Shown: piece after piece, positions 1 to 11,633 of the stretch | Numbering within the stretch: position 1 is the stretch's first letter | How the letters are laid out: the number at the start of each line of letters is the position of its first letter | Assembly (NCBI GenBank): GCA_963522175.1 | Contig: CAUQXC010000002.1 | Coordinates: forward strand, 253,134 to 317,133 | Reading direction: 5' to 3' | Source of the DNA: an uncultured Lachnospiraceae bacterium | Lineage (GTDB): Bacteria > Bacillota > Clostridia > Lachnospirales > Lachnospiraceae | Length of the DNA stretch: 64,000 nt | The notes under the pieces: model-generated | Told to the model about the DNA's origin: nothing | What the model saw: the letters and a program-made list of their open reading frames with translations, nothing else | The model's database searches: none | Program-made: the position numbers and the translations under genes

Positions 1-527
1 TTTACAAGCTCGCCCATATCTTTTCTAAGACTTTCGTCAAGCCCCGAAAAAGGCTCGTCAAGAAGTAAAACCTTTGGTTTTGCGGCAAGAGCTCTTGCGA
101 GAGCCACCCTTTGCATCTGTCCGCCGGAAAGCTCACTTATCTTTCTTTTTTCTAAACCCGAAAGTTTTACCTGTTCGAGTAAAAGCTTAACCTCCTCATC
201 TATCCTGCTCTTTTCAAATTTTCGAAGTTTCATCGGAAAAGCTATATTTTGCTCTACATTCATATTCGGAAAAAGCCTTAAATCCTGAAAGACTATTATG
301 GTATCCCTTTTTTCAGGTGCAAGTCCTACAATGCTTTTATTATCTATGCATATATCACCGCTTTTAGGCTCTACAAGACCGGCTACTGTCTTTATCAAAG
401 TAGTTTTTCCGCAACCGCTTTTCCCGAGAACCGAGACAAATTCACCCGATTTAATTTCCAAATTAAGGTCCTTAAGTACGTGATTTGTACCCAGACACAC
501 GTTCAAAGCCTGTATTTTCAAATTCAT
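1..527 (-). CDS. ABC transporter ATP-binding protein (partial; C-terminus lies beyond the window edge)
   Basis: Absent from the ORF track because it runs off the edge. My minus-strand translation from the ATG at 527 reads MNLKIQALNVCLGTNHVLKDLNLEIKSGEFVSVLGKSGCGKTTL (Walker A), then ELSGGQMQRVALARALAAKPKVLLLDEPFSGLD (ABC signature and Walker B). It starts 9 nt after the permease stop at 537. Confidence 0.9.
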   Translation of the reverse strand, partial: MNLKIQALNVCLGTNHVLKDLNLEIKSGEFVSVLGKSGCGKTTLIKTVAGLVEPKSGDICIDNKSIVGLAPEKRDTIIVFQDLRLFPNMNVEQNIAFPMKLRKFEKSRIDEEVKLLLEQVKLSGLEKRKISELSGGQMQRVALARALAAKPKVLLLDEPFSGLDESLRKDMGELV

Positions 528-536
528 AAGCACCTC

Positions 537-1346
537 TTAGACAAAATATTCAATCTTATTTCCCTTTGTATAGTACCGTGCCAAGGTATCGAAAACAAGA
601 AAAACACCTATGGTTATCACAAGAAAAATCACGGCATATATGCTTGCAAAATTTCTTTCCCCGCTTTGCATATAAGGTACCATTACAACGGAAAAGGTCT
701 TTACGTTTCCGCCGCCTATAAGCAAAGTCAAAAAATACTGACTTATGGAAATGATATACGACATTGTAAAAGCCGACAAAACCACAGGAGTCATATTAGG
801 CAGGCTCACAAGGAAAAAAGCCTTTAATGCACTTGCACCCAGAACTCTTGCCTGCTCTTCAAGCCCCTTTCCCAAGGCTCTCGTCCCTTCTTCTATAAGC
901 TTATTGGTATAAGGCAGGGAATATATTATATGGCATATAATAACACCGATAACACTGCCTCCCAAGCCTATTCTTAAAAATAATATCTGTACTCCCATAG
1001 CAAATACCGTTGTAGGTACTAAAAAAGGACTCAGCATCATAAATGAAATAAAAGTTTTAAACTTAAAATCATAGAAAACGAAAGCCCTTGCGCTCAATAT
1101 GGCAATGATAACGCAACAAAACGAAACCACACAGGATATAAAAATGCTGAGTAAAAATGTATTAAATAAATCCTTACTCTTAAATACTATACTGTTAAAT
1201 GCCCTTAATGAAAATTTATTCGGAATCAAATTGGGCCATGTATACCTCTCCGTAAGCATCCAAATAAATAAAGTTAGTAAAGGTAATACAACTATAGCGG
1301 CAAATAAAACCAAAATCACTCTGCCGAAAATCTTATTTTTTTTCAC
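537..1346 (-). CDS. ABC transporter permease (binding-protein-dependent inner membrane component)
   Basis: 269 aa polytopic protein with an EAA-type loop, LIEEGTRALGKGLEEQARVLGASALKAFFLVSLP. It sits between the ATPase gene and a second permease gene. Confidence 0.85.
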   Translation of the reverse strand: MKKNKIFGRVILVLFAAIVVLPLLTLFIWMLTERYTWPNLIPNKFSLRAFNSIVFKSKDLFNTFLLSIFISCVVSFCCVIIAILSARAFVFYDFKFKTFISFMMLSPFLVPTTVFAMGVQILFLRIGLGGSVIGVIICHIIYSLPYTNKLIEEGTRALGKGLEEQARVLGASALKAFFLVSLPNMTPVVLSAFTMSYIISISQYFLTLLIGGGNVKTFSVVMVPYMQSGERNFASIYAVIFLVITIGVFLVFDTLARYYTKGNKIEYFV

Positions 1347-2274: not shown

Positions 2275-3009
2275 TTATTTTTCTTTACTCGCAACCACCA
2301 AAATCGATACTCCGAAAGGTAAGTTCATAAATCTTATCAAGGCTTTTTCAAATCTCAGGACCTCCGTAAGCACCTTGTTACTGAAGCCTTCATTAGCCAT
2401 AGAAAGATTATTCGACTTTATATGAAACAAATTAGAGAAAAATCTTACGGCAAATACGGCAGGGAATAAAAAAGTATTGAAATACGTAGCCTTCCTTACC
2501 TTAAATCCTGCTTTTTTAAGCTTAACAACAAGCTCCTTCATGCTATACCTTCTGTAATGCATATTTATCTCGTCGTGCTCACTCCATAAAAACCAAAATG
2601 CCGGAACTGTTATAACAAGCTTTCCTTTGTCCGTAAGCATTTCACGAAAAAGCTTTAAGGTTCCCTCATCATCCTTTATATGCTCTATAACGTCAAGAGC
2701 CGTAATAAGGTCGAATTTTGTATTTTCAAAAGGACGCTCATCCGGAAGCATGGCTTTTTGAACCTTGACATTCTTGGTATTTACAAGGTGCTCAAGGGCA
2801 TAATCCGAATTCTCCACCGCAAATACTTTTCCGAACTTTTTTAAATCATTCAATATGAAACCGCAGCCGGCTCCAATATCAATGATATTGTTGGATTTTG
2901 AAGGCGAAATTATCTTTTTTATCTGCTCAAGAACTATTTCCTTTCTCCCAATATACCACCAATGCGTCCTTTGGTTTTCTTCTATTTGTTCATACATTTC
3001 TTTTTTCAT
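2275..3009 (-). CDS. Class I SAM-dependent methyltransferase
   Basis: 244 aa. Motif I is IIDIGAGCGF, followed by an acidic residue (FAVENS) and motif-II-like DLITALDVIEH. An N-terminal HWWYIGR block is present. No TM segments or signal peptide. Confidence 0.8.
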   Translation of the reverse strand: MKKEMYEQIEENQRTHWWYIGRKEIVLEQIKKIISPSKSNNIIDIGAGCGFILNDLKKFGKVFAVENSDYALEHLVNTKNVKVQKAMLPDERPFENTKFDLITALDVIEHIKDDEGTLKLFREMLTDKGKLVITVPAFWFLWSEHDEINMHYRRYSMKELVVKLKKAGFKVRKATYFNTFLFPAVFAVRFFSNLFHIKSNNLSMANEGFSNKVLTEVLRFEKALIRFMNLPFGVSILVVASKEK

Positions 3010-3103: not shown

Positions 3104-4396
3104 TTATTTACCTAAAACCTCTTCAGCCCATATCTCTTCAATAATAGGCACCAAACCTGCCGGCATTTCAGGTAATCTCTTTTCAAGAAGCTCCTTCTGA
3201 GAAATAACACCCTTTCCTATATCAACGGAATCAAAAAGTGCTTTCTGCTCATCACTCAGCTTCTCGTAAGAAACAACAGGTATGGTTCTTAAGGTTTTAT
3301 GTCTTTCAGCCTGAACCTCAGGTGACATCATTTCGTTAATGGCTACCTGTGCCGCAGCTTTATTTCCGGAATTTCCCGCTATTGCAATATAGTTGGTGTT
3401 TCCTATTGTACCCTTGTCAAACTGGAAGCTTCTTGTTGTCTCGCTGAAGGTTCCGTCCTCTATGTTTGCCGCAACTCCGAAAGCCGCATAGGACATTCCC
3501 ATGACAAGCTCTCCGTCAGCATACATATTTCTCATGGTAGGCTCTTTTTCAGGAAAGGTCTTTCCTTCGTTCCAGAGATATGGATTAAGCTCTCTCAAAT
3601 ACTCAAGTGCAGGCTCAATAGCTTCCTTAACCTTTTCCTTATCCTCAGGCATATCGGCAAACTGCTCATATCCCACTATATCGTAAATGATATTTCTTAC
3701 AAATGCGGAACCTGTAAAGTCGGGAAGTGCCGGATATGTAACCTTTCCCTTGTATTTCTTTGCAAATTCAAGCAATTCTTCAGTATTTTTAGGTGTTTCC
3801 GGTGTAATTGCACTGTCATTATACATAACAAGCTGTGCCTTTCCGTAAGGCGCCTCATAGCCTTCAATAGGAAAACCGAAGTCAAAGTTTACTTCTCTTT
3901 CACTTGTGTCTATATACTTTTCAAAGTTAGGTAAGCTCTCGGCAAACGGTCCGTAAAGGAAATTGTTTTCTTTTGCACTCTTAAAGTTCTCACCGTTAAT
4001 CCAAATCATGTCTATGTCACCGTTTTCTTTTCCGGCGCTCGCTTCACCCGAAAGCTGGCTCATTATAGCCTCTATATCCATGCCTACTCTTTTAAGCTTA
4101 ATATCATACTTTTCTTTTAAATGTTCGGCATAATATCCGTCTATCCAAGTATTAAGCCTGTCGTCTCCGCCCCACATGTAAAATGTAAGCTCCGTACCTC
4201 TTGCTTCCTCAACAAGCTTATCAAAATCGGAAGTTCCCGCCGCTACCTGCTCCGCACTCTTTTCGGCTGTTGTTTCTCCCGCTTTTTCAGTAGCTGCGGC
4301 TGTACTTTGAGGCGCATCTGCCGCCTTTGAACAAGCCGCTCCCGTAAATAAAAGCGTACCGAGGGCTAAACCGAGTAATAATTTGTTCTTCATCAT
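3104..4396 (-). CDS. ABC transporter substrate-binding lipoprotein (possibly YnjB-like; family not verified)
   Basis: 430 aa. Signal peptide with lipobox LFTGAC, then an A/T/E-rich linker and a large soluble domain (LTFYMWGGDDRLNTWIDGYY...). It lies in an operon with two permeases and an ATPase. Confidence 0.75.
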   Translation of the reverse strand: MMKNKLLLGLALGTLLFTGAACSKAADAPQSTAAATEKAGETTAEKSAEQVAAGTSDFDKLVEEARGTELTFYMWGGDDRLNTWIDGYYAEHLKEKYDIKLKRVGMDIEAIMSQLSGEASAGKENGDIDMIWINGENFKSAKENNFLYGPFAESLPNFEKYIDTSEREVNFDFGFPIEGYEAPYGKAQLVMYNDSAITPETPKNTEELLEFAKKYKGKVTYPALPDFTGSAFVRNIIYDIVGYEQFADMPEDKEKVKEAIEPALEYLRELNPYLWNEGKTFPEKEPTMRNMYADGELVMGMSYAAFGVAANIEDGTFSETTRSFQFDKGTIGNTNYIAIAGNSGNKAAAQVAINEMMSPEVQAERHKTLRTIPVVSYEKLSDEQKALFDSVDIGKGVISQKELLEKRLPEMPAGLVPIIEEIWAEEVLGK

Positions 4397-4402
4397 TTTC
4401 TC

Positions 4403-5098
4403 CTATTTCTTCTTTGTCTTCTCAATATACACCTGTCTTGCAAGCATTATAAGAAATGACAGACCGAACAATATCAAAAGTCCCGTAACCATTATCTTTG
4501 CTCCTCCCGTGAGGAAACCGCCCACATAGGAGTAAACCAAGGTTGCCGGTAACTGCCCTATGCCCGTGGCTATAAAAAAGCTTGTAAACGACATTGATGT
4601 AAGTCCTGCGGCATAGCTTACTATATCGAAGGACACGAAAGGCAAAAGCCTTGCTATAAGCACACTCATATTACCGTGCTTTTCAAAAAATTCATCTATA
4701 TTCTTCATACCGGATTTGCTTGTGAGCTTTTCCGCCACGTCTCGTCCCAAAATCCTTGCTATATAAAAACAAAGAGCGGCTCCCGCCATTGCACTTGACC
4801 ATGAAAGAATTGCTCCCTGCCACCAGCCGAATAAATTTGCATTTGCAAATGTTATAAGAAAGGCAGGCAAGGGAGCAACTACAGACTGTAAAATCATCAG
4901 TAAAAACGAAACTATGGCTGCATATACTCCGTAAGATGCGACAAAATCCTTAACCACTTGGAAATCTCCCGTGGCAAACATTGAAAAGATGTTATTTATA
5001 AGCTTATTGACAGCCGGAACACATACATACACCGAAAAGCAAAGCAAAAGAGCCAGTATAAGATATATTTTCTTTATTAAACTCCTATTTTTGCTCAT
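4403..5098 (-). CDS. TVP38/TMEM64 (SNARE-associated, DedA-related) family membrane protein
   Basis: 231 aa, multiple TM segments. Core block is VVAPLPAFLITFANANLFGWWQGAILSWSSAMAGAALCFYIARILGRD, typical of the YdjX/YdjZ-type family. Confidence 0.75.
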   Translation of the reverse strand: MSKNRSLIKKIYLILALLLCFSVYVCVPAVNKLINNIFSMFATGDFQVVKDFVASYGVYAAIVSFLLMILQSVVAPLPAFLITFANANLFGWWQGAILSWSSAMAGAALCFYIARILGRDVAEKLTSKSGMKNIDEFFEKHGNMSVLIARLLPFVSFDIVSYAAGLTSMSFTSFFIATGIGQLPATLVYSYVGGFLTGGAKIMVTGLLILFGLSFLIMLARQVYIEKTKKK

Positions 5099-5106
5099 AA
5101 TTCGTT

Positions 5107-5871
5107 TTAGTTAAACTTATACTCCATTTCTTTTGTTCCGTCCAAGGTATTCCATACATTTGTATAGCCTTTGTCAGCTATATAAGCTGCCGCCTTTGCG
5201 GAACGGTTACCCGAGTAGCAATGTGTTATGATAAGAGTATCCTTATCCTCAGGAAGCCGGCTGTCCAAGGTTGAAAGGTCTTCCACATTAACATTAATCG
5301 CATTTGCAAAATGCTCCTTATCATAATCCTTTGCCTCTCTTGCATCCACTATGAAGGCTTCATCTTTCTTTGCCATAAGCTCTTCACCCGTTATGTTACC
5401 GTACTTAACAAGCTTATACTCATACTGCTTTACTCCGTCAGCATTTGTAACATCCTTAAAGCCGTTTTCTACAAGTATATCTGCCGCCTCTCCTGATTTC
5501 TTTCCGGAGTTGCAATATAAAATAACGCTCTTATCCTTCCATGCGTCAAGCTTGCTTATATTATCTTTAAATGTGTCTATAGGCATATTGATTGCAAATT
5601 TAACATGACCCTCGGCATACTCTTCAGGGCTTCTTACGTCAACTACCATAACACCCTCTTTTTTCTCCTTGTCGTCCTCTATAGCCTGTAAATCCGCACC
5701 TGCCATAGTTTTAACCGCAGACTTTTCGCTCGCTTCATTCCCTGACTGAGCCTCGGTTCCACCCGCCTGAGCCTTAGTTTCATTTGAAGCCGTCTGACCT
5801 GAGCAAGCTGTAGAAATTGCCAATGCTCCTATCACTCCGATGCCTAATAAAACTTTTTTGAATTTTTTCAT
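5107..5871 (-). CDS. Exported tandem-rhodanese lipoprotein (sulfurtransferase-like)
   Basis: 254 aa. Lipobox AISTAC. Two rhodanese modules each carry a candidate catalytic Cys loop: LYCNSGKKSGEAA and HCYSGNRSAKAA. Confidence 0.8.
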   Translation of the reverse strand: MKKFKKVLLGIGVIGALAISTACSGQTASNETKAQAGGTEAQSGNEASEKSAVKTMAGADLQAIEDDKEKKEGVMVVDVRSPEEYAEGHVKFAINMPIDTFKDNISKLDAWKDKSVILYCNSGKKSGEAADILVENGFKDVTNADGVKQYEYKLVKYGNITGEELMAKKDEAFIVDAREAKDYDKEHFANAINVNVEDLSTLDSRLPEDKDTLIITHCYSGNRSAKAAAYIADKGYTNVWNTLDGTKEMEYKFN

Positions 5872-5987: not shown

Positions 5988-7010
5988 CTATACTTCATCT
6001 TCGTAAAGTATATCCTCGATGCTTTTAATAAAATCACCACTTAAATAAGCATTAAGTTTACGTCTTGTACTTTCATTGCGTAAATTTTTACTTTCATCGA
6101 GATACTCCGTATATGCCATGGCACACCATGTCAAGCCTCGTATACAGTTTATTTTTATAAAGGTATAGGTACTTTCTCTTATTTTCGAAGTGTCAAATCT
6201 GTTATTTACTGCTTTTATATACTCATCTATGAAAATATCAAACTCTCTTTTCTGAAGTATCACATCCGTTTTCCAAAATGTTGTCGTAGGTGCAAGGAAA
6301 TGTCCGAGATCCTGAGCCGGCAAACCGAATATAGGCTTTTCCCAGTCTATAAGATAACTTTGCAAACAGCCTTCCCCAGTCAAAAAATTGCTCGAATTAA
6401 GCTCTGTATTTACTATACATTTATACAAGCCCTTTAAATTTTTGTCTACATTTTTTTCTATCTCCCTCGCCTTATACAAAAGCTTTTCAAGTCTTCGTTT
6501 TATGTCCTCCGAAGCCCTGTCGTTATACGTATATACCTTAAGCATGCTTTCGCACTCGTCAAGTATGAAGCCTATATCGTTTTCGCTTTGTATAAGCCCG
6601 CTTCCGTCAAGTTTGAGGCTGTGAATATCCGCAAGAATGTGAGCCGCTTTTAAAATATCCTTCTTATAGTCAAGAGGTCTTCCTTTAAGGTAATCCATAA
6701 CCAGAATGCCTTTATCTATATACTTTTTTGAGCTGTCCGTATAATAAACCTTCGGCGTTCTCCCTGTTTTCCGAAGCTTCGACAAAGCATAGGCTTCATA
6801 TTCTATCTGATTTTCAAGCTTCATTTGAGAACCGTAGTTTATTCTCAAAACAAGCTTTTTATTCCATACGGGATGTCTGAAAACATAGTTCAAATTGTAC
6901 TCTCCCGCAGCTAAAAACCTGTATTTTTCCTCAACTTTTTCGGGAAGAGACAGGGCCTTCCTGTATTCTTTACTTTTTACCAAATTTGAAATCTGTTCTT
7001 CATTTACCAT
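5988..7010 (-). CDS. Phosphotransferase (APH/choline-kinase-like) family protein with an atypical catalytic loop
   Basis: 340 aa. It has the kinase-fold C-lobe pattern IVNTELNSSNFL ... YLIDWEKPIFGLPAQDLGHFL. The IDWE block matches the metal-binding D of the APH/ChoK fold. Its start ATG overlaps the upstream stop (TAATG). Confidence 0.6.
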   Translation of the reverse strand: MVNEEQISNLVKSKEYRKALSLPEKVEEKYRFLAAGEYNLNYVFRHPVWNKKLVLRINYGSQMKLENQIEYEAYALSKLRKTGRTPKVYYTDSSKKYIDKGILVMDYLKGRPLDYKKDILKAAHILADIHSLKLDGSGLIQSENDIGFILDECESMLKVYTYNDRASEDIKRRLEKLLYKAREIEKNVDKNLKGLYKCIVNTELNSSNFLTGEGCLQSYLIDWEKPIFGLPAQDLGHFLAPTTTFWKTDVILQKREFDIFIDEYIKAVNNRFDTSKIRESTYTFIKINCIRGLTWCAMAYTEYLDESKNLRNESTRRKLNAYLSGDFIKSIEDILYEDEV

Positions 7011-8371
7011 TATCTCACATCCTTGTATAAGTTTGCCAAAACATCAATATCTATGCCGTCTCTGTACATTTTTCTGAGTCTGTTCATCTTCCACATAAGT
7101 TTGAGCTTATCGTATACATTACCTTTAAATCTTCTGTCGCTCGTATATATCCTGTTTCTTGTCATGCCGAAGCGTATCCCCGCTTCCTTCAAATTCAAAG
7201 AAAATTTATAGTCCTCCATTAAAGGGAGATCCGGAAAAGCTCCCGCTTCAAAAAACAGATCTCTTTCAAGGAATATTCCTTGGTCTCCGAACATAACTCC
7301 CCTGTCAAAAACCCTGCTGTTGCTTATAAGCCTGCATATAAACATAAGTGGCGAAAGAGATTTAAAGGCTATACCGAAGCAACCGGCTCTACGTCTTGAC
7401 ATGACCTCTCTTATCTGTGAAAGAGGTTTATCCGGTAAAATACTGTCGCTGTGAAGGAAAAAAAGCACATCCGCCTTTGTACTCAAAGCACCCGTATTCA
7501 TCTGTTTGCTTCTGCCTTTTTCCGAAAAAATAAGCTTAAGCCTTTTATCAATCAGCTTTCTTGTGTTATCCGTACTTCCTCCGTCAACAAGTATTATCTC
7601 GCACTTGTCATTAAGCTTTAAAAGCTGTTTTTGCAAGGCTTCTATGGTTTTTTCCTCATTGTAGACCGGGACTATTATCGCTATACTCATTGTTTTTATA
7701 AGATACTTTCCGGTATGACTTTTTCTGAATTTACGAGATTTCCTAAGTCTGTCTCTGTAATAAATAATATCCTCTTTTGTGTCTATATCTCTGAATGTTC
7801 TCAAAAAACTTATATTCTTATTTTGTGCCTTTATTTTATTCACTGTGCCTTCAAATACGCTTTCATCCCCGAATTTTTCCAGATTAAAGACCTCTCTGTC
7901 GGGCTTTTTCATACCTATAAGACAGTAACCGCCGTCTGCCGCCTTGCCCAGAACATAATCCTTATACCTTAAGTTTATAAAAGCGCTTTTTATGTCCGCA
8001 GCCCTAAGCTCGGGAATGTCGCTCCCCGTCAAAACAAGAAATTTGTAGCCCTTTTTGTATACCTCTTCTATTGCGGTATACATCTTTTCTCCTATATCCT
8101 TTCCTTCCTGTCTCAGGTACGAAACCCTTTCTCCGAAAATATTCTTAAGCCTCAAAAAAGCCTTTCTTACCGCTTCCTCATTTACCCCCTTCGGCACGTC
8201 ATAATAAAGAAACACTTTCACATCTTTAAGTTTTCCTATTTCCTCCGACATATCTTTAAGCATGGAAAGATGTAAGCCTACACACTTTTTCTCATCAAAA
8301 TAAGGCATAAGCCTTGTCTTTGTGTGCCGGTTTACAGGTAACCTGCTGAAAATAATAAGTGCTTTATCCAC
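7010..8371 (-). CDS. Fusion protein: DUF2064 (TIGR04282-like) domain + family-2 glycosyltransferase (TIGR04283-like) domain
   Basis: 453 aa. The N-terminal half begins ALIIFSRLPVNRHTKTRLMPYF (DUF2064 signature xxIFaKxPxxGxVKTRL). The C-terminal half has IAIIVPVYNEEKTI...EIILVDGGSTDNT...GRSKQMNTGA...FLHSDS (GT2). GTG start preceded by AAGGAG at 7-nt spacing. Confidence 0.75.
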   Translation of the reverse strand: MDKALIIFSRLPVNRHTKTRLMPYFDEKKCVGLHLSMLKDMSEEIGKLKDVKVFLYYDVPKGVNEEAVRKAFLRLKNIFGERVSYLRQEGKDIGEKMYTAIEEVYKKGYKFLVLTGSDIPELRAADIKSAFINLRYKDYVLGKAADGGYCLIGMKKPDREVFNLEKFGDESVFEGTVNKIKAQNKNISFLRTFRDIDTKEDIIYYRDRLRKSRKFRKSHTGKYLIKTMSIAIIVPVYNEEKTIEALQKQLLKLNDKCEIILVDGGSTDNTRKLIDKRLKLIFSEKGRSKQMNTGALSTKADVLFFLHSDSILPDKPLSQIREVMSRRRAGCFGIAFKSLSPLMFICRLISNSRVFDRGVMFGDQGIFLERDLFFEAGAFPDLPLMEDYKFSLNLKEAGIRFGMTRNRIYTSDRRFKGNVYDKLKLMWKMNRLRKMYRDGIDIDVLANLYKDVR

Positions 8372-8382
8372 AAAATAACTCC

Positions 8383-9357
8383 TTAAATAAACTTGGTTTT
8401 TGCTCTGTTAATCCACGAATTTTTAACATCCGGTTTTTCATTTGTTCCCAATATCAGTGGCAAGAAATGCAATACATTGTCACAGCCCTGTCTGTTAAAA
8501 TTTCCCGCACAGGTTCCGCAATACGTAACTATCTTATCATGCCCCTGCGCTTTAAGCTTTTTCGGCATATCAAGGGCAAGCTGCCTTTCCTTTACTATGG
8601 CACAGCCGCCCAAACCGCAGCACTGTACATTCTTAACAAAATCAGTTTTTGCATTTATAAAAGGAGCCACATATTCCATCCATTTTTTATTTTCCCTGTC
8701 CGGACAAGGCAAAAAAATATCCGCAGTGAAATCTATCTTATTCCCTATTCCAAGCTCGGTAAGCTTTTCATATATGGTGGTAATTTTAACATTCAGTCTG
8801 TCTCCGAAATGATAAAAACAGTTAGGACAAACCAGAACAAATTCCTTTATACCGTTTTTTTCTATAAATTTATTTATTTTATCTATTATCTCATTTTCTT
8901 CCTTTACAAGCCCCAGCTCTGCTATAGGCTTTCCGCAACAGTCATAAGCCGTGTCTATGTTTTGCTTTTCCTTAAGTAAAGCCGAAATATACCTCATGGT
9001 TTCAGGAAAAAATGAGGGAAAATTACAGCCCGGGAAAAGTATACTTTCCGATTTCGCCTTTGAATAATTCTTAAAAATATAATTTTTCTTTTCAAGAAGC
9101 AAAGGAGCATAGCCCTTTTGTTTTAAGGAATAGCCTCCCTCTTTTACCTCGTCCGTTCTCATGTCAAAAATAATCTGTCTTCCGTCTATATCCTTGGGAC
9201 ATACTCTTGTACACTCACCGCACAAAAAACAATGATATGCCAGATCCTTAAGCTTGTCTACATCACCTATGGTCAAATTGTACTTTGTGAGAAATGAGCA
9301 ATGTTTTGTACAAAGTTTACAATTTATGCACTTTGTAAAATCGGTATGTTTATTCAT
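8383..9357 (-). CDS. (Fe-S)-binding CCG-domain oxidoreductase subunit (HdrD/GlpC/LutA-like)
   Basis: Two ferredoxin-type clusters (CINCKLCTKHC and CFLCGECTRVCP) and two CCG motifs (YDCCGKP, VQCCGLGGC). Start trimmed to MNKHTDF (ATG at 9357), since the longer ORF-track start would run far into the upstream gene. Confidence 0.75.
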   Translation of the reverse strand: MNKHTDFTKCINCKLCTKHCSFLTKYNLTIGDVDKLKDLAYHCFLCGECTRVCPKDIDGRQIIFDMRTDEVKEGGYSLKQKGYAPLLLEKKNYIFKNYSKAKSESILFPGCNFPSFFPETMRYISALLKEKQNIDTAYDCCGKPIAELGLVKEENEIIDKINKFIEKNGIKEFVLVCPNCFYHFGDRLNVKITTIYEKLTELGIGNKIDFTADIFLPCPDRENKKWMEYVAPFINAKTDFVKNVQCCGLGGCAIVKERQLALDMPKKLKAQGHDKIVTYCGTCAGNFNRQGCDNVLHFLPLILGTNEKPDVKNSWINRAKTKFI

Positions 9358-10039
9358 TTGAAATTTCCTTATCCACCTTATACTTTTTAAACAAAAACGC
9401 GAGCAAAAACACCAAAACCGCAAGCCCCACAGCTAAACTCACATACAGAGTTCTGTTTGTTTTATCGACCACAGCCGCCGCTCCTATGGTATACATAGCC
9501 GTCCCCGGCAAAATAAATATAAAAGTAAACACGGAATATGTCGAAAGTCTCATATCCGTTACTCCATAGGCAAAATTCTGTAAATTAAAGGGAAACAGAG
9601 GGACAAGGCGGGTTATCATCAAGATAAAAATTTCATTTTTCTTCATATCTTCAAAAAGATATTTCTTTAAATACTTATTTTTCATAGCCAAAGGCTTAAT
9701 CCTGTCCTGCAAAAAATATCTTCCGCTTATAAATGCAAGTACCGCTCCTATGCTTGCGGCAAGCGTACATAAGAAAGTTCCGTAAAACGCTCCGAACAGC
9801 ATTCCCGCAGCTATTGCAAAGCTTATTCCCGGTAAAGCGAGGACCACACTTCCCACCACAGTTGCCGCTACGTATATAAGACTTGCGAGTAAAATATTGT
9901 CATCAACCGAACTTTTCATTTTCTTAAGCTCTTCCACACTTAAATAGCTTGAAAAATCAAACATTTTATTAAGTATTATTATAACAATTATAGCCGTCAC
10001 GAAAATGATAAGCTTGATATTTTTATTTTTCTTTTCCAT
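9350..10039 (-). CDS. TVP38/TMEM64 family membrane protein (second copy)
   Basis: 229 aa. Core block VVLALPGISFAIAAGMLFGAFYGTFLCTLAASIGAVLAFISGRYFLQD is paralogous to 4403-5098. It overlaps both neighbouring genes. Confidence 0.75.
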   Translation of the reverse strand: MEKKNKNIKLIIFVTAIIVIIILNKMFDFSSYLSVEELKKMKSSVDDNILLASLIYVAATVVGSVVLALPGISFAIAAGMLFGAFYGTFLCTLAASIGAVLAFISGRYFLQDRIKPLAMKNKYLKKYLFEDMKKNEIFILMITRLVPLFPFNLQNFAYGVTDMRLSTYSVFTFIFILPGTAMYTIGAAAVVDKTNRTLYVSLAVGLAVLVFLLAFLFKKYKVDKEISNE

Positions 10040-10454
10040 CTATCCCCCAAAATGCCAAAGCAAGTGACAAAATCTGTCTAATCAAAAGTATGCTTAAAAC
10101 TATCAAACAAGCATAGTAATCTCTACGCTTATCTATATTAAAAACGAAAAAATATATACCTGTAAATACCGCATAGATGAAAAGCAAAATTGTCTCTGCC
10201 AATACACCTTTATTTCTTATATACTTTTTATACAAAGTAAAAGCGATAAAAAATATACTTAAAAGCACAAGGAGCAAACAGACAAGACTTACCACAGGTA
10301 CCGAAAATATACTGGCATTTTTTATTTTTCTTCCGAGATAGACCATATATCTTGCCATTCCCATTTTTTTATTTGTGAAATACATGATGGCTATAAAGGC
10401 AAGCCAAAAAATGAGATGTAAGATTTCTATAATTATTTTTAAAACTTTTTTCAT
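10023..10454 (-). CDS. Small polytopic membrane protein, unknown function
   Basis: 143 aa with about 4 hydrophobic helices and no motif I recognise. It overlaps the downstream TVP38 gene by 17 nt, which suggests translational coupling. Confidence 0.6.
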   Translation of the reverse strand: MKKVLKIIIEILHLIFWLAFIAIMYFTNKKMGMARYMVYLGRKIKNASIFSVPVVSLVCLLLVLLSIFFIAFTLYKKYIRNKGVLAETILLFIYAVFTGIYFFVFNIDKRRDYYACLIVLSILLIRQILSLALAFWGIDGKEK

Positions 10455-10505: not shown

Positions 10506-11633
10506 TTATTTCTTAGCCTTGTCCGTACTTAAGTCGGAAACCTTAACTTCTTTGTAATCCGCACTTCCCGGCTCTCCGAGCTGAACAGGGTTTTCACCGT
10601 CCATCTGCCACTGGAACCAACCGCCGTCGTAAAGATATACGTTCTTTAAGCCGTTTTCGTAAGCAATAAGGAAAGGTACGCTTGCTCTCCAGCCCGTTCC
10701 GCAGTAAACTGCCAAACTGTTATCCTTTGTTGAAGCACCCGATTCTGCCAAATACTTGTCAAATGTATCAAGACCTACTATAGTTCCGTCAGGGTTGTTG
10801 TAAGACTTGTCATCCGTATCATGTCCCCAGATAGCTCCTAAAGGCTCTCCCGCTCTGTCGATGTAACCGTATCCCGATGTTTTTCCCAAAAATTCATCCT
10901 TAGCTCTGATGCTTACAAGCTTAAACTTAGGGTCGGAAGCGAGCTTTTCCTTAACCTCATCTATACTGAGTATGTACTCAGGATGTGCCGGAACTTTTAC
11001 TCCGAAGTCCTTATCGGTAGCCACAGGCTTGTTTACCTTAGACTCGGTTTCATAACCCGCCTTTGTCCAAGCATCTATACCGCCGCTTAAATTCTTCACA
11101 TTCTCAACACCTGCCCAAAGAAGTGTAAGAGCAAGTCTGTCATCCGCAGTGATTTCAGGAGTATTTCCGTAGGTGATAACAGTAGTATCCTTTGTTATTC
11201 CGTAAGACTTCATCAAAGCTTCTATTTCTTCCGGAGTTCTTATATTCCAAAATTCATCAGACTCTATATCGTCCGTATTCACATGAAATGCGCCCGGAAT
11301 ATGTGCTTTAGTGTAAAATTCGTCATCCTCAATCTTACCCCATGCAGCCTCGAGAACGACAAAATCTTTTGATTCCTCCTGCTCTCCGTCCATAACCGAT
11401 TTAACCCAATCAGGCCCCACATATACCTTGGTTTTTTCTTCTTTTGCAACTTCTTTCTTGTCCTCTGCCCCGGTTTCCTCAGTCTCCTTGCTTTCGCTTG
11501 TCTCCTTAGCTTCGCTTACCTCCTCGGTTTCACTTGCCGCCTGAGTTCCAGTGTTTGAAGCTCCCGCACAGGCACTGAGTAAAAGAGCTGCCACAGCGGT
11601 ACAGGCAAAAATTGAATAAACAGATTTTTTCAT
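10506..11633 (-). CDS. Exported two-domain rhodanese lipoprotein (thiosulfate/3-mercaptopyruvate sulfurtransferase-like)
   Basis: 375 aa. Lipobox LLSAC, then an E/T/K-rich linker. The N-terminal rhodanese domain appears inactive; the C-terminal domain carries the active-site loop YCGTGWRAS. Confidence 0.8.
   Translation of the reverse strand: MKKSVYSIFACTAVAALLLSACAGASNTGTQAASETEEVSEAKETSESKETEETGAEDKKEVAKEEKTKVYVGPDWVKSVMDGEQEESKDFVVLEAAWGKIEDDEFYTKAHIPGAFHVNTDDIESDEFWNIRTPEEIEALMKSYGITKDTTVITYGNTPEITADDRLALTLLWAGVENVKNLSGGIDAWTKAGYETESKVNKPVATDKDFGVKVPAHPEYILSIDEVKEKLASDPKFKLVSIRAKDEFLGKTSGYGYIDRAGEPLGAIWGHDTDDKSYNNPDGTIVGLDTFDKYLAESGASTKDNSLAVYCGTGWRASVPFLIAYENGLKNVYLYDGGWFQWQMDGENPVQLGEPGSADYKEVKVSDLSTDKAKK

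Follow-up and report, generated by a model that had tools for sequence, protein, structure and literature searches.

The locus and the fused transferase gene

A window of 64,000 nucleotides, taken from contig CAUQXC010000002.1 of an uncultured Lachnospiraceae bacterium (GenBank assembly GCA_963522175.1), was analysed around a gene that encodes two transferases in a single frame. The N-terminal enzyme belongs to the family TIGR04282/DUF2064 and is called transferase 1 here; the C-terminal enzyme belongs to TIGR04283 and is called transferase 2. The initial annotation of this DNA had described the fusion, had remarked on the lack of the radical S-adenosylmethionine (SAM) enzyme ArsS beside it and had proposed that the pair was recruited to a different pathway. 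With moderate confidence we conclude instead that the gene encodes a bifunctional enzyme of a conserved pathway shared with ArsS, which in this organism is fed by an importer and a nucleoside hydrolase. The gene and its two domains are as follows.

7010..8371, minus strand: fusion gene, 453 amino acids (aa), GTG start, with a TIGR04282/DUF2064 domain joined directly to a TIGR04283 glycosyltransferase family 2 (GT2) domain (open reading frame and profile search)
7766..8359, minus strand: transferase-1 domain, aa 5-202, with a MobA/CofC/FbiD-like fold (TIGR04282, likeness to 3cgx)
7025..7684, minus strand: transferase-2 domain, aa 230-449, a GT-A glycosyltransferase of family 2 (TIGR04283, GT2 structures)

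Both halves are true members of their families by the curated NCBIfam cut-offs, as the initial annotation had supposed. Residues 5-202 match positions 1-189 of the 189 of TIGR04282 (166.4 bits, cut-off 134), and residues 230-449 match positions 1-221 of the 221 of TIGR04283 (213.4 bits, cut-off 182). The Pfam scores were 77.6 bits for DUF2064 (PF09837), 65.6 bits for Glycos_transf_2 (PF00535) and 28.8 bits for CofC. The TIGR03552 CofC profile gave 41.4 bits, and weak GpgS and MftF matches were recorded. The motifs quoted earlier (ALIIFSRLPVNRHTKTRL, GRSKQMNTGA and FLHSDS) were all found in the open reading frame, and both gene junctions read as described. At the upstream junction (TAAGGAG, 7 nt, GTG) the Shine-Dalgarno sequence and the stop codon of the preceding CCG gene overlap. 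At the downstream junction (TAATG) one base is common to the fusion stop codon and the ATG of the kinase-like gene.

The invariant residues of domain 1 are K18-T19-R20, G116/D118/P120, D146 and D195/D197/D201. Those of domain 2 are P235/Y237-N238-E239, D263-G-G, D268, H307/D309-S310 and E386-D387. The KTRL, GxDxP and DxD blocks of domain 1 are, we assume, those typical of nucleotidyltransferases, and the PxYNE, DGG, HxD and ED blocks of domain 2 are presumably those typical of GT2 enzymes.

The fusion was modelled with AlphaFold2 (AF2). The model is confident throughout (pLDDT 90.6, pTM 0.88), including interdomain residues 200-230, and the C-terminal helices of domain 1 align also to the stand-alone protein 3cgx; the domains are thus joined end to end without an added linker. 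The Protein Data Bank (PDB) entry 3cgx is a Desulfovibrio DUF2064 protein from structural genomics with no assigned function. It has the same fold as the N-terminal half (sequence E 8e-38; Foldseek E 2.6e-20, TM-score 0.84, root-mean-square deviation 2.4 Å). The same fold is found in stand-alone FbiD/CofC guanylyltransferases, namely FbiD 6bwh, which uses phosphoenolpyruvate (PEP; TM-score 0.72), and 7p97, which uses 3-phosphoglycerate (TM-score 0.77). These substrates are not known to apply to the fusion. The closest structural matches of domain 2 are GT2 enzymes.

Frequency and spread of the fusion

The initial annotation had treated the fusion as unusual. It is in fact common in Lachnospiraceae, is the main form there and is already present in databases, with hundreds of homologues. 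Searched against 5.8 billion protein clusters, the fusion gave 889 matches. The best 120 of these were all 434-498 aa long with both Pfam domains present and, when the window's own cluster (99% identity) was excluded, were 49-61% identical to the query. Sixteen near-identical cluster members came from independent assemblies. The homologue of Lacrimispora indolis is named 'TIGR04283 family arsenosugar biosynthesis glycosyltransferase' by NCBI.

Genomes were sampled at three ranks. In the family sample, TIGR04283 exceeded its cut-off in 19 of 300 genomes, 15 of them with the fused form. One genome was shared by this sample and by one taken around Extibacter muris, which places the genome of the window in Lachnospiraceae. 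The order sample had it in six of 301 genomes, two fused (this genome and one family member) and four unfused. It was present in 13 of the 399 genomes of the class sample, all others being unfused. Transferase 1 followed by transferase 2 in a single frame was seen in Bacillota only. Outside Bacillota the two are adjacent separate genes: transferase 2 comes first in Actinomycetota, Omnitrophota and Pseudomonadota, and transferase 1 in Bacteroidota. In the tree of transferase 2, sequences from Bacillota group in a clade with an SH-aLRT support of 98, and most fused forms fall into one subclade (SH-aLRT 93). The fusion may have had a single origin with a few later splits, which is compatible with this tree. 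In literature searches with TIGR04282, TIGR04283, DUF2064 and other terms, no functional work on the transferases or the fusion came to light.

Two homologues depart from the usual form. In Oribacterium parvum (L017:9463-11542) a long low-complexity insert rich in E and K lies inside the transferase-1 domain. Extibacter muris has at one locus an internally deleted remnant of 219 aa (L023:9995-10654), in which transferase-1 positions 1-45 are joined to transferase-2 positions 56-221. A kinase fragment follows it (L023:10602-10958), and an intact ArsS/AhpD-like/C-GCAxxG-C-C set adjoins. A second locus of the same genome (L012) holds an intact fusion and kinase.

Fusions of transferase 1 to other partners

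Transferase 1 is a fusion hub. It is joined to transferase 2 in Lachnospiraceae, and elsewhere to a kinase-like protein or to a nucleoside hydrolase. The kinase-like fusion was found in at least 120 clusters (Anaerococcus, Peptoniphilus, Ezakiella, Peptostreptococcus and Treponema, the last as T. pedis) and the hydrolase fusion in two. Because transferase 1 is thus fused elsewhere to the adjacent kinase or to the nucleoside hydrolase of the cassette, the two activities joined in the window probably act consecutively, as had been suggested from the fusion itself. The transferase 1-kinase fusions, of about 485 aa (for example L025:7213-8694 and L028:7203-8651), are widespread in Tissierellales, Peptostreptococcales and Treponema pedis. 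Their NCBI names are TIGR04282 family or DUF2064 protein, with the kinase half unmentioned.

ArsS and the conserved cassette

The genome is 99.88% complete in 34 contigs and has one TIGR04283 gene. The absence of ArsS from the locus extends to the whole genome, where the best match to TIGR04167 scored 34.8 bits (cut-off 300). ArsM (NF008823) was not found genome-wide either, with a best match of 37.7 bits (cut-off 263). The AhpD-like family TIGR04169 had no match in the genome, and no AhpD-like gene was seen in the window or the genome. The initial annotation had allowed that ArsS might lie just beyond the window edge. This was checked and it is not there; a HemN-like radical SAM gene about 5 kb further left did not register as ArsS-like. 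ArsM was also not found in five ArsS-positive Lachnospiraceae genomes, so an arsenosugar product is unproven even in those.

Two observations concern selenium. The SelD gene of this genome (G000:C4:302733-303650) has an in-frame TGA, so the organism makes selenoproteins. Three ArsS genes of Clostridia (G955, G848 and G699) have one in-frame TGA each, inside the match, and are probably selenocysteine forms.

The 13 proteins of the window were compared by tblastn with 37 Bacillota loci. The conserved core comprises an exported YnjE-like rhodanese, two TVP38 proteins, a CCG/4Fe-4S protein, transferases 1 and 2 and the kinase-like protein; a C-GCAxxG-C-C protein is often part of it. The same core genes surround two types of entry module. 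Module A consists of ArsS and the AhpD-like TIGR04169 protein (for example at Extibacter L023). Module B is an importer made up of a YnjB-type binding protein, a pair of permeases and an ATPase, with an IU-type nucleoside hydrolase after it. The hydrolase gene lies 3' of the ATPase gene in 15 of 15 importer-type cassettes, this one included.

The two modules alternate. Among ArsS-positive genomes the importer was in the cassette in one of 12, and the hydrolase likewise in one of 12. The corresponding figures for ArsS-negative genomes were 14 of 19 and 16 of 19. Fisher's test on the importer counts gave p = 6e-4, a value to be read with the relatedness of the genomes, which are not independent, and the incompleteness of some metagenome-assembled genomes (MAGs) in mind. 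ArsS was present in ten of the 16 fusion-bearing genomes of the family (15 sampled and this one), and within about 3 kb of the fusion gene in five of those ten; unfused transferase pairs without ArsS were also common. The system thus often occurs without ArsS, whether or not the transferases are fused.

In the transferase-2 tree, rows of the ArsS type interleave with rows of the importer type over short distances, and the 27 labelled rows show at least seven switches. Because of this interleaving, we read the same downstream enzyme as probably serving both entry modules.

These data bear on the proposed recruitment, in which the fused pair would have left the ArsS pathway and would work here in a different, unrelated one. 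In its favour, this genome lacks ArsS, ArsM and TIGR04169, and many genomes have the transferase pair without ArsS. However, the core genes are the same around both versions, the transferase sequences of both cassette types interleave closely, and ArsS is kept in most fusion-bearing genomes of the family, half of the time adjacent to the fusion. We regard an unrelated pathway as unlikely; one pathway with two alternative entry modules is the better reading. In this genome the pathway is probably fed by the importer and a nucleoside-cleaving enzyme instead of ArsS. The counts of ArsS against importer and hydrolase, the hydrolase beyond the window edge, the threefold fusion hub and the tree of repeated module exchange are what the present analysis adds.

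Neighbouring genes

The other genes of the cassette in the window, and the last one beyond its left edge, are listed here.

8383..9423, minus strand: CCG-domain protein with a 4Fe-4S dicluster domain (CCG and Fer4 families; partial NF045663 match)
9350..10039, minus strand: TVP38/VTT-domain membrane protein 2 (PF09335, 76.8 bits; conserved in cassettes)
10023..10454, minus strand: small protein with four transmembrane segments, weakly conserved
10506..11633, minus strand: exported two-domain rhodanese lipoprotein, YnjE-like (40% identity to E. coli YnjE)
5988..7010, minus strand: atypical protein of the APH/choline-kinase fold (Pfam APH, 47.7 bits; generic APH/choline-kinase fold in the AF2 model)
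5107..5871, minus strand: exported tandem rhodanese lipoprotein, PspE/GlpE-like (NF045521, 92 bits, below cut-off)
4403..5098, minus strand: TVP38/VTT membrane protein 1, YdjZ orthologue (53% identity over the full length)
3104..4396, minus strand: YnjB-type substrate-binding lipoprotein of an ATP-binding cassette (ABC) importer (NF008633, 447.6 bits, cut-off 203)
2275..3009, minus strand: SAM methyltransferase, between the binding-protein and permease genes (in the cassette of this lineage only)
1408-2262 and 537-1346, minus strand: two ABC permease genes (weak YnjC similarity)
1..533, minus strand: 5' part of the ABC ATPase gene, which continues left of the window
G000:C2:251713-252645 (L112:10714-11646), minus strand, outside the window: IU-type nucleoside hydrolase, last gene of the cassette (PF01156, 104.4 bits)

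The hydrolase gene shares 11 nt with the end of the ATPase gene. Its product is 46-52% identical to most hydrolases of importer-type cassettes and 32-35% identical to those of a few divergent ones. Beyond the left edge lie the rest of the ATPase gene, the nucleoside hydrolase, an aldo-keto reductase, RelA, a metallo-beta-lactamase-fold hydrolase and the HemN-like radical SAM gene. The aldo-keto reductase, which adjoins the hydrolase gene, was rejected as a member of the system as it is not conserved in other cassettes.

The longest open reading frame of the CCG gene has a TTG start and a 74-nt overlap with the upstream TVP38 gene. The true start is likely the ATG near 9357 (MNKHTDF...), which gives an 8-nt overlap. 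The methyltransferase has no counterpart in the other cassettes compared and is not ArsM-like (15 bits to an ArsM fusion model). A PDB sequence search with the binding protein gave one weak match, to an uncharacterised substrate-binding protein, and no clue to a ligand.

In the kinase-like protein, N-T-E replaces the canonical H-x-D loop. This was considered as a mark of a decayed kinase and rejected, the blocks INTELNxxNFL, (I/V)DWEKP and QGEYNxNY being invariant in 26 homologues. A PDB sequence search gave no informative match. The AF2 model shows a generic fold that matches both choline/ethanolamine kinases and APH enzymes, and Pfam Choline_kinase matches below its threshold. The predicted fold would fit a sugar or an alcohol substrate alike and does not decide between them.

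Comparison with known systems

The backbone of the cassette matches the ydjXYZ-ynjABCDE genes of Escherichia coli K-12, whose homologues were found clustered in the window by tblastn. YdjZ is 53% identical to TVP38 protein 1 (E 6e-81), YnjE 40% to the rhodanese lipoprotein at 10506..11633 (E 4e-65), YnjB 34% to the binding protein (E 2e-58) and YnjD 36% to the ATPase (E 2e-27). The match of YnjC to the permease is weak (24%). Each system has two TVP38-type proteins and an Fe-S protein. The ferredoxin-type YdjY has no tblastn match here, and the CCG/dicluster protein stands in its place. E. coli lacks transferase 1, transferase 2, the kinase and the hydrolase, all of which the system of the window has, whereas it has the AhpD-like YnjA. 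The CDP-alcohol phosphatidyltransferase gene ynjF lies near the E. coli operon. The ydjXYZ-ynjABCD operon and ynjE are directly activated by FNR, and their products are recorded as predicted proteins without known function (PMC3688515). Literature searches for ydjX/ydjZ and ynjB/ynjE returned FNR regulation and the phylogeny of the DedA family, and no functional study was found.

The second relative is the cyanobacterial ArsM-ArsS gene set, which includes TIGR04169, TIGR04282 and TIGR04283, families called 'arsenosugar biosynthesis' in NCBIfam. Both of its transferase families are above cut-off here too, and ArsS-containing versions of the cassette exist in close relatives of this organism. 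This genome differs in lacking ArsS, ArsM and TIGR04169, in having the transferases fused, and in having an ABC importer and a nucleoside hydrolase where relatives have ArsS. Among the control genomes, Synechococcus elongatus was the one above the TIGR04283 cut-off; exactly one control was above cut-off for TIGR04282, and exactly one for TIGR04167.

A functional analogy is offered by salvage-type sugar activation, in which an anomeric kinase, a nucleotide sugar pyrophosphorylase and a glycosyltransferase act in turn; the bifunctional fucokinase/GDP-fucose pyrophosphorylase is an example. The window enzymes would follow the same logic of kinase, nucleotidyltransferase and transferase, with consecutive steps fused. 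The salvage-type enzymes have no sequence relationship to them.

Proposed pathway

ArsS reportedly joins a 5'-deoxyadenosyl radical to an organoarsenical, giving a 5'-modified adenosine; adenine is then removed to allow derivatisation of the ribose (bioRxiv 10.64898/2026.04.29.721666). In the pathway that we propose for this genome, the YnjBCD-like ABC importer would take up a riboside and the nucleoside hydrolase encoded after the ATPase gene would remove the base. The atypical APH-fold kinase would phosphorylate the released sugar. Domain 1 of the fusion (MobA/CofC-like) would activate the phosphorylated intermediate with a nucleoside triphosphate, making a nucleoside diphosphate (NDP)-sugar, and domain 2 (GT2) would transfer the activated group to an acceptor, possibly a membrane lipid. 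The two TVP38/YdjZ-type proteins may then move the glycosylated membrane lipid. We infer the order of these steps, the sugar 1-phosphate intermediate, the imported compound (bearing As, Se, S or none of them) and the acceptor. Exported rhodaneses in the cassette suggest a chemistry of sulfur or selenium.

A number of points weigh against this pathway. The enzymes nearest to domain 1 in structure, FbiD and CofC, act on phospho-acids rather than on sugar 1-phosphates. N-T-E takes the place of H-x-D in the kinase-like protein, whose model has no specific likeness to anomeric sugar kinases. ArsS-type cassettes lack a hydrolase of their own, and a housekeeping enzyme must be assumed for base removal. 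An MTAP-like phosphorylase that could act as a substitute was not found in two ArsS cassettes without a kinase. The proposed steps do not account for the rhodaneses, the CCG protein or the methyltransferase. The alternation of modules is itself drawn in part from 'ArsS-negative' genomes that are incomplete MAGs, and from related genomes that are not independent samples.

In a pathway like that of Lic head groups, the choline-kinase-like protein would phosphorylate an imported alcohol (for example a choline analogue), domain 1 would make an NDP-alcohol, and the product would be attached to a lipid or polymer. The kinase model, which fits choline/ethanolamine kinases as well as APH, and the sub-threshold Choline_kinase match both suit such a scheme, as does ynjF, which adjoins the homologous E. 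coli operon. Against it, the nucleoside hydrolase is a constant partner that is also found fused to domain 1, and the product of ArsS is a nucleoside. Moreover, GT2 enzymes normally transfer glycosyl groups, not phospho-alcohols. We think a head-group pathway improbable, about as much so as recruitment to an unrelated one.

A cofactor-type pathway appears more doubtful still. Domain 1 would act there, like CofC or FbiD, on a phospho-acid (PEP, 2-phospholactate or 3-phosphoglycerate), and domain 2, like MftF or GpgS, on a small molecule and not on a lipid. The CofC scores of the fusion (TIGR03552, 41.4 bits; Pfam, 28.8 bits), the TM-scores of 0.72-0.77 to the FbiD and 3-phosphoglycerate guanylyltransferases and the weak GpgS and MftF matches speak for this, but such a pathway gives the kinase, the hydrolase, the importer and the two TVP38 proteins no role, and no further genes for F420 or mycofactocin appeared in the cassette. 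The view that the fusion arose by misassembly or misannotation, or that the gene is decaying, for which the internally deleted remnant of Extibacter muris L023 might be cited, is refuted by an intact frame with invariant catalytic-type residues, by 16 near-identical members of its cluster that come from independent assemblies and by the hundreds of homologues of full length, and is extremely improbable.

The consecutive pathway from nucleoside to activated sugar may tentatively be extended to the cell envelope. In a widespread envelope pathway, anaerobes would use a 5'-modified nucleoside, either made by ArsS or imported ('make or take'), convert it into an NDP-sugar and transfer it to a membrane lipid or surface molecule. 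The TVP38-type proteins and the exported rhodaneses would handle the glycosylated molecule, sulfur or selenium could take the place of arsenic as the modifying element, and the backbone would be the one held in common with the E. coli ydjXYZ-ynj operon. We put this forward as a possibility, with clearly less confidence than the shared pathway itself.

Significance

The two transferase families are named 'arsenosugar biosynthesis' only through their adjacency to ArsS, and the public name of the system, which is widespread, probably misleads where these organisms are concerned. Both transferases are part of a broader conserved set of genes, often without ArsS and ArsM, which appears able to be fed by an importer and a nucleoside hydrolase, and whose backbone is common to an anaerobically induced operon of E. 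coli. The three fusions of transferase 1 give a concrete and testable order for the later steps of the pathway. If the product is indeed a sulfur-, selenium- or arsenic-bearing glycolipid of gut anaerobes, it would represent a new class of envelope chemistry, and the annotation would need to be corrected.

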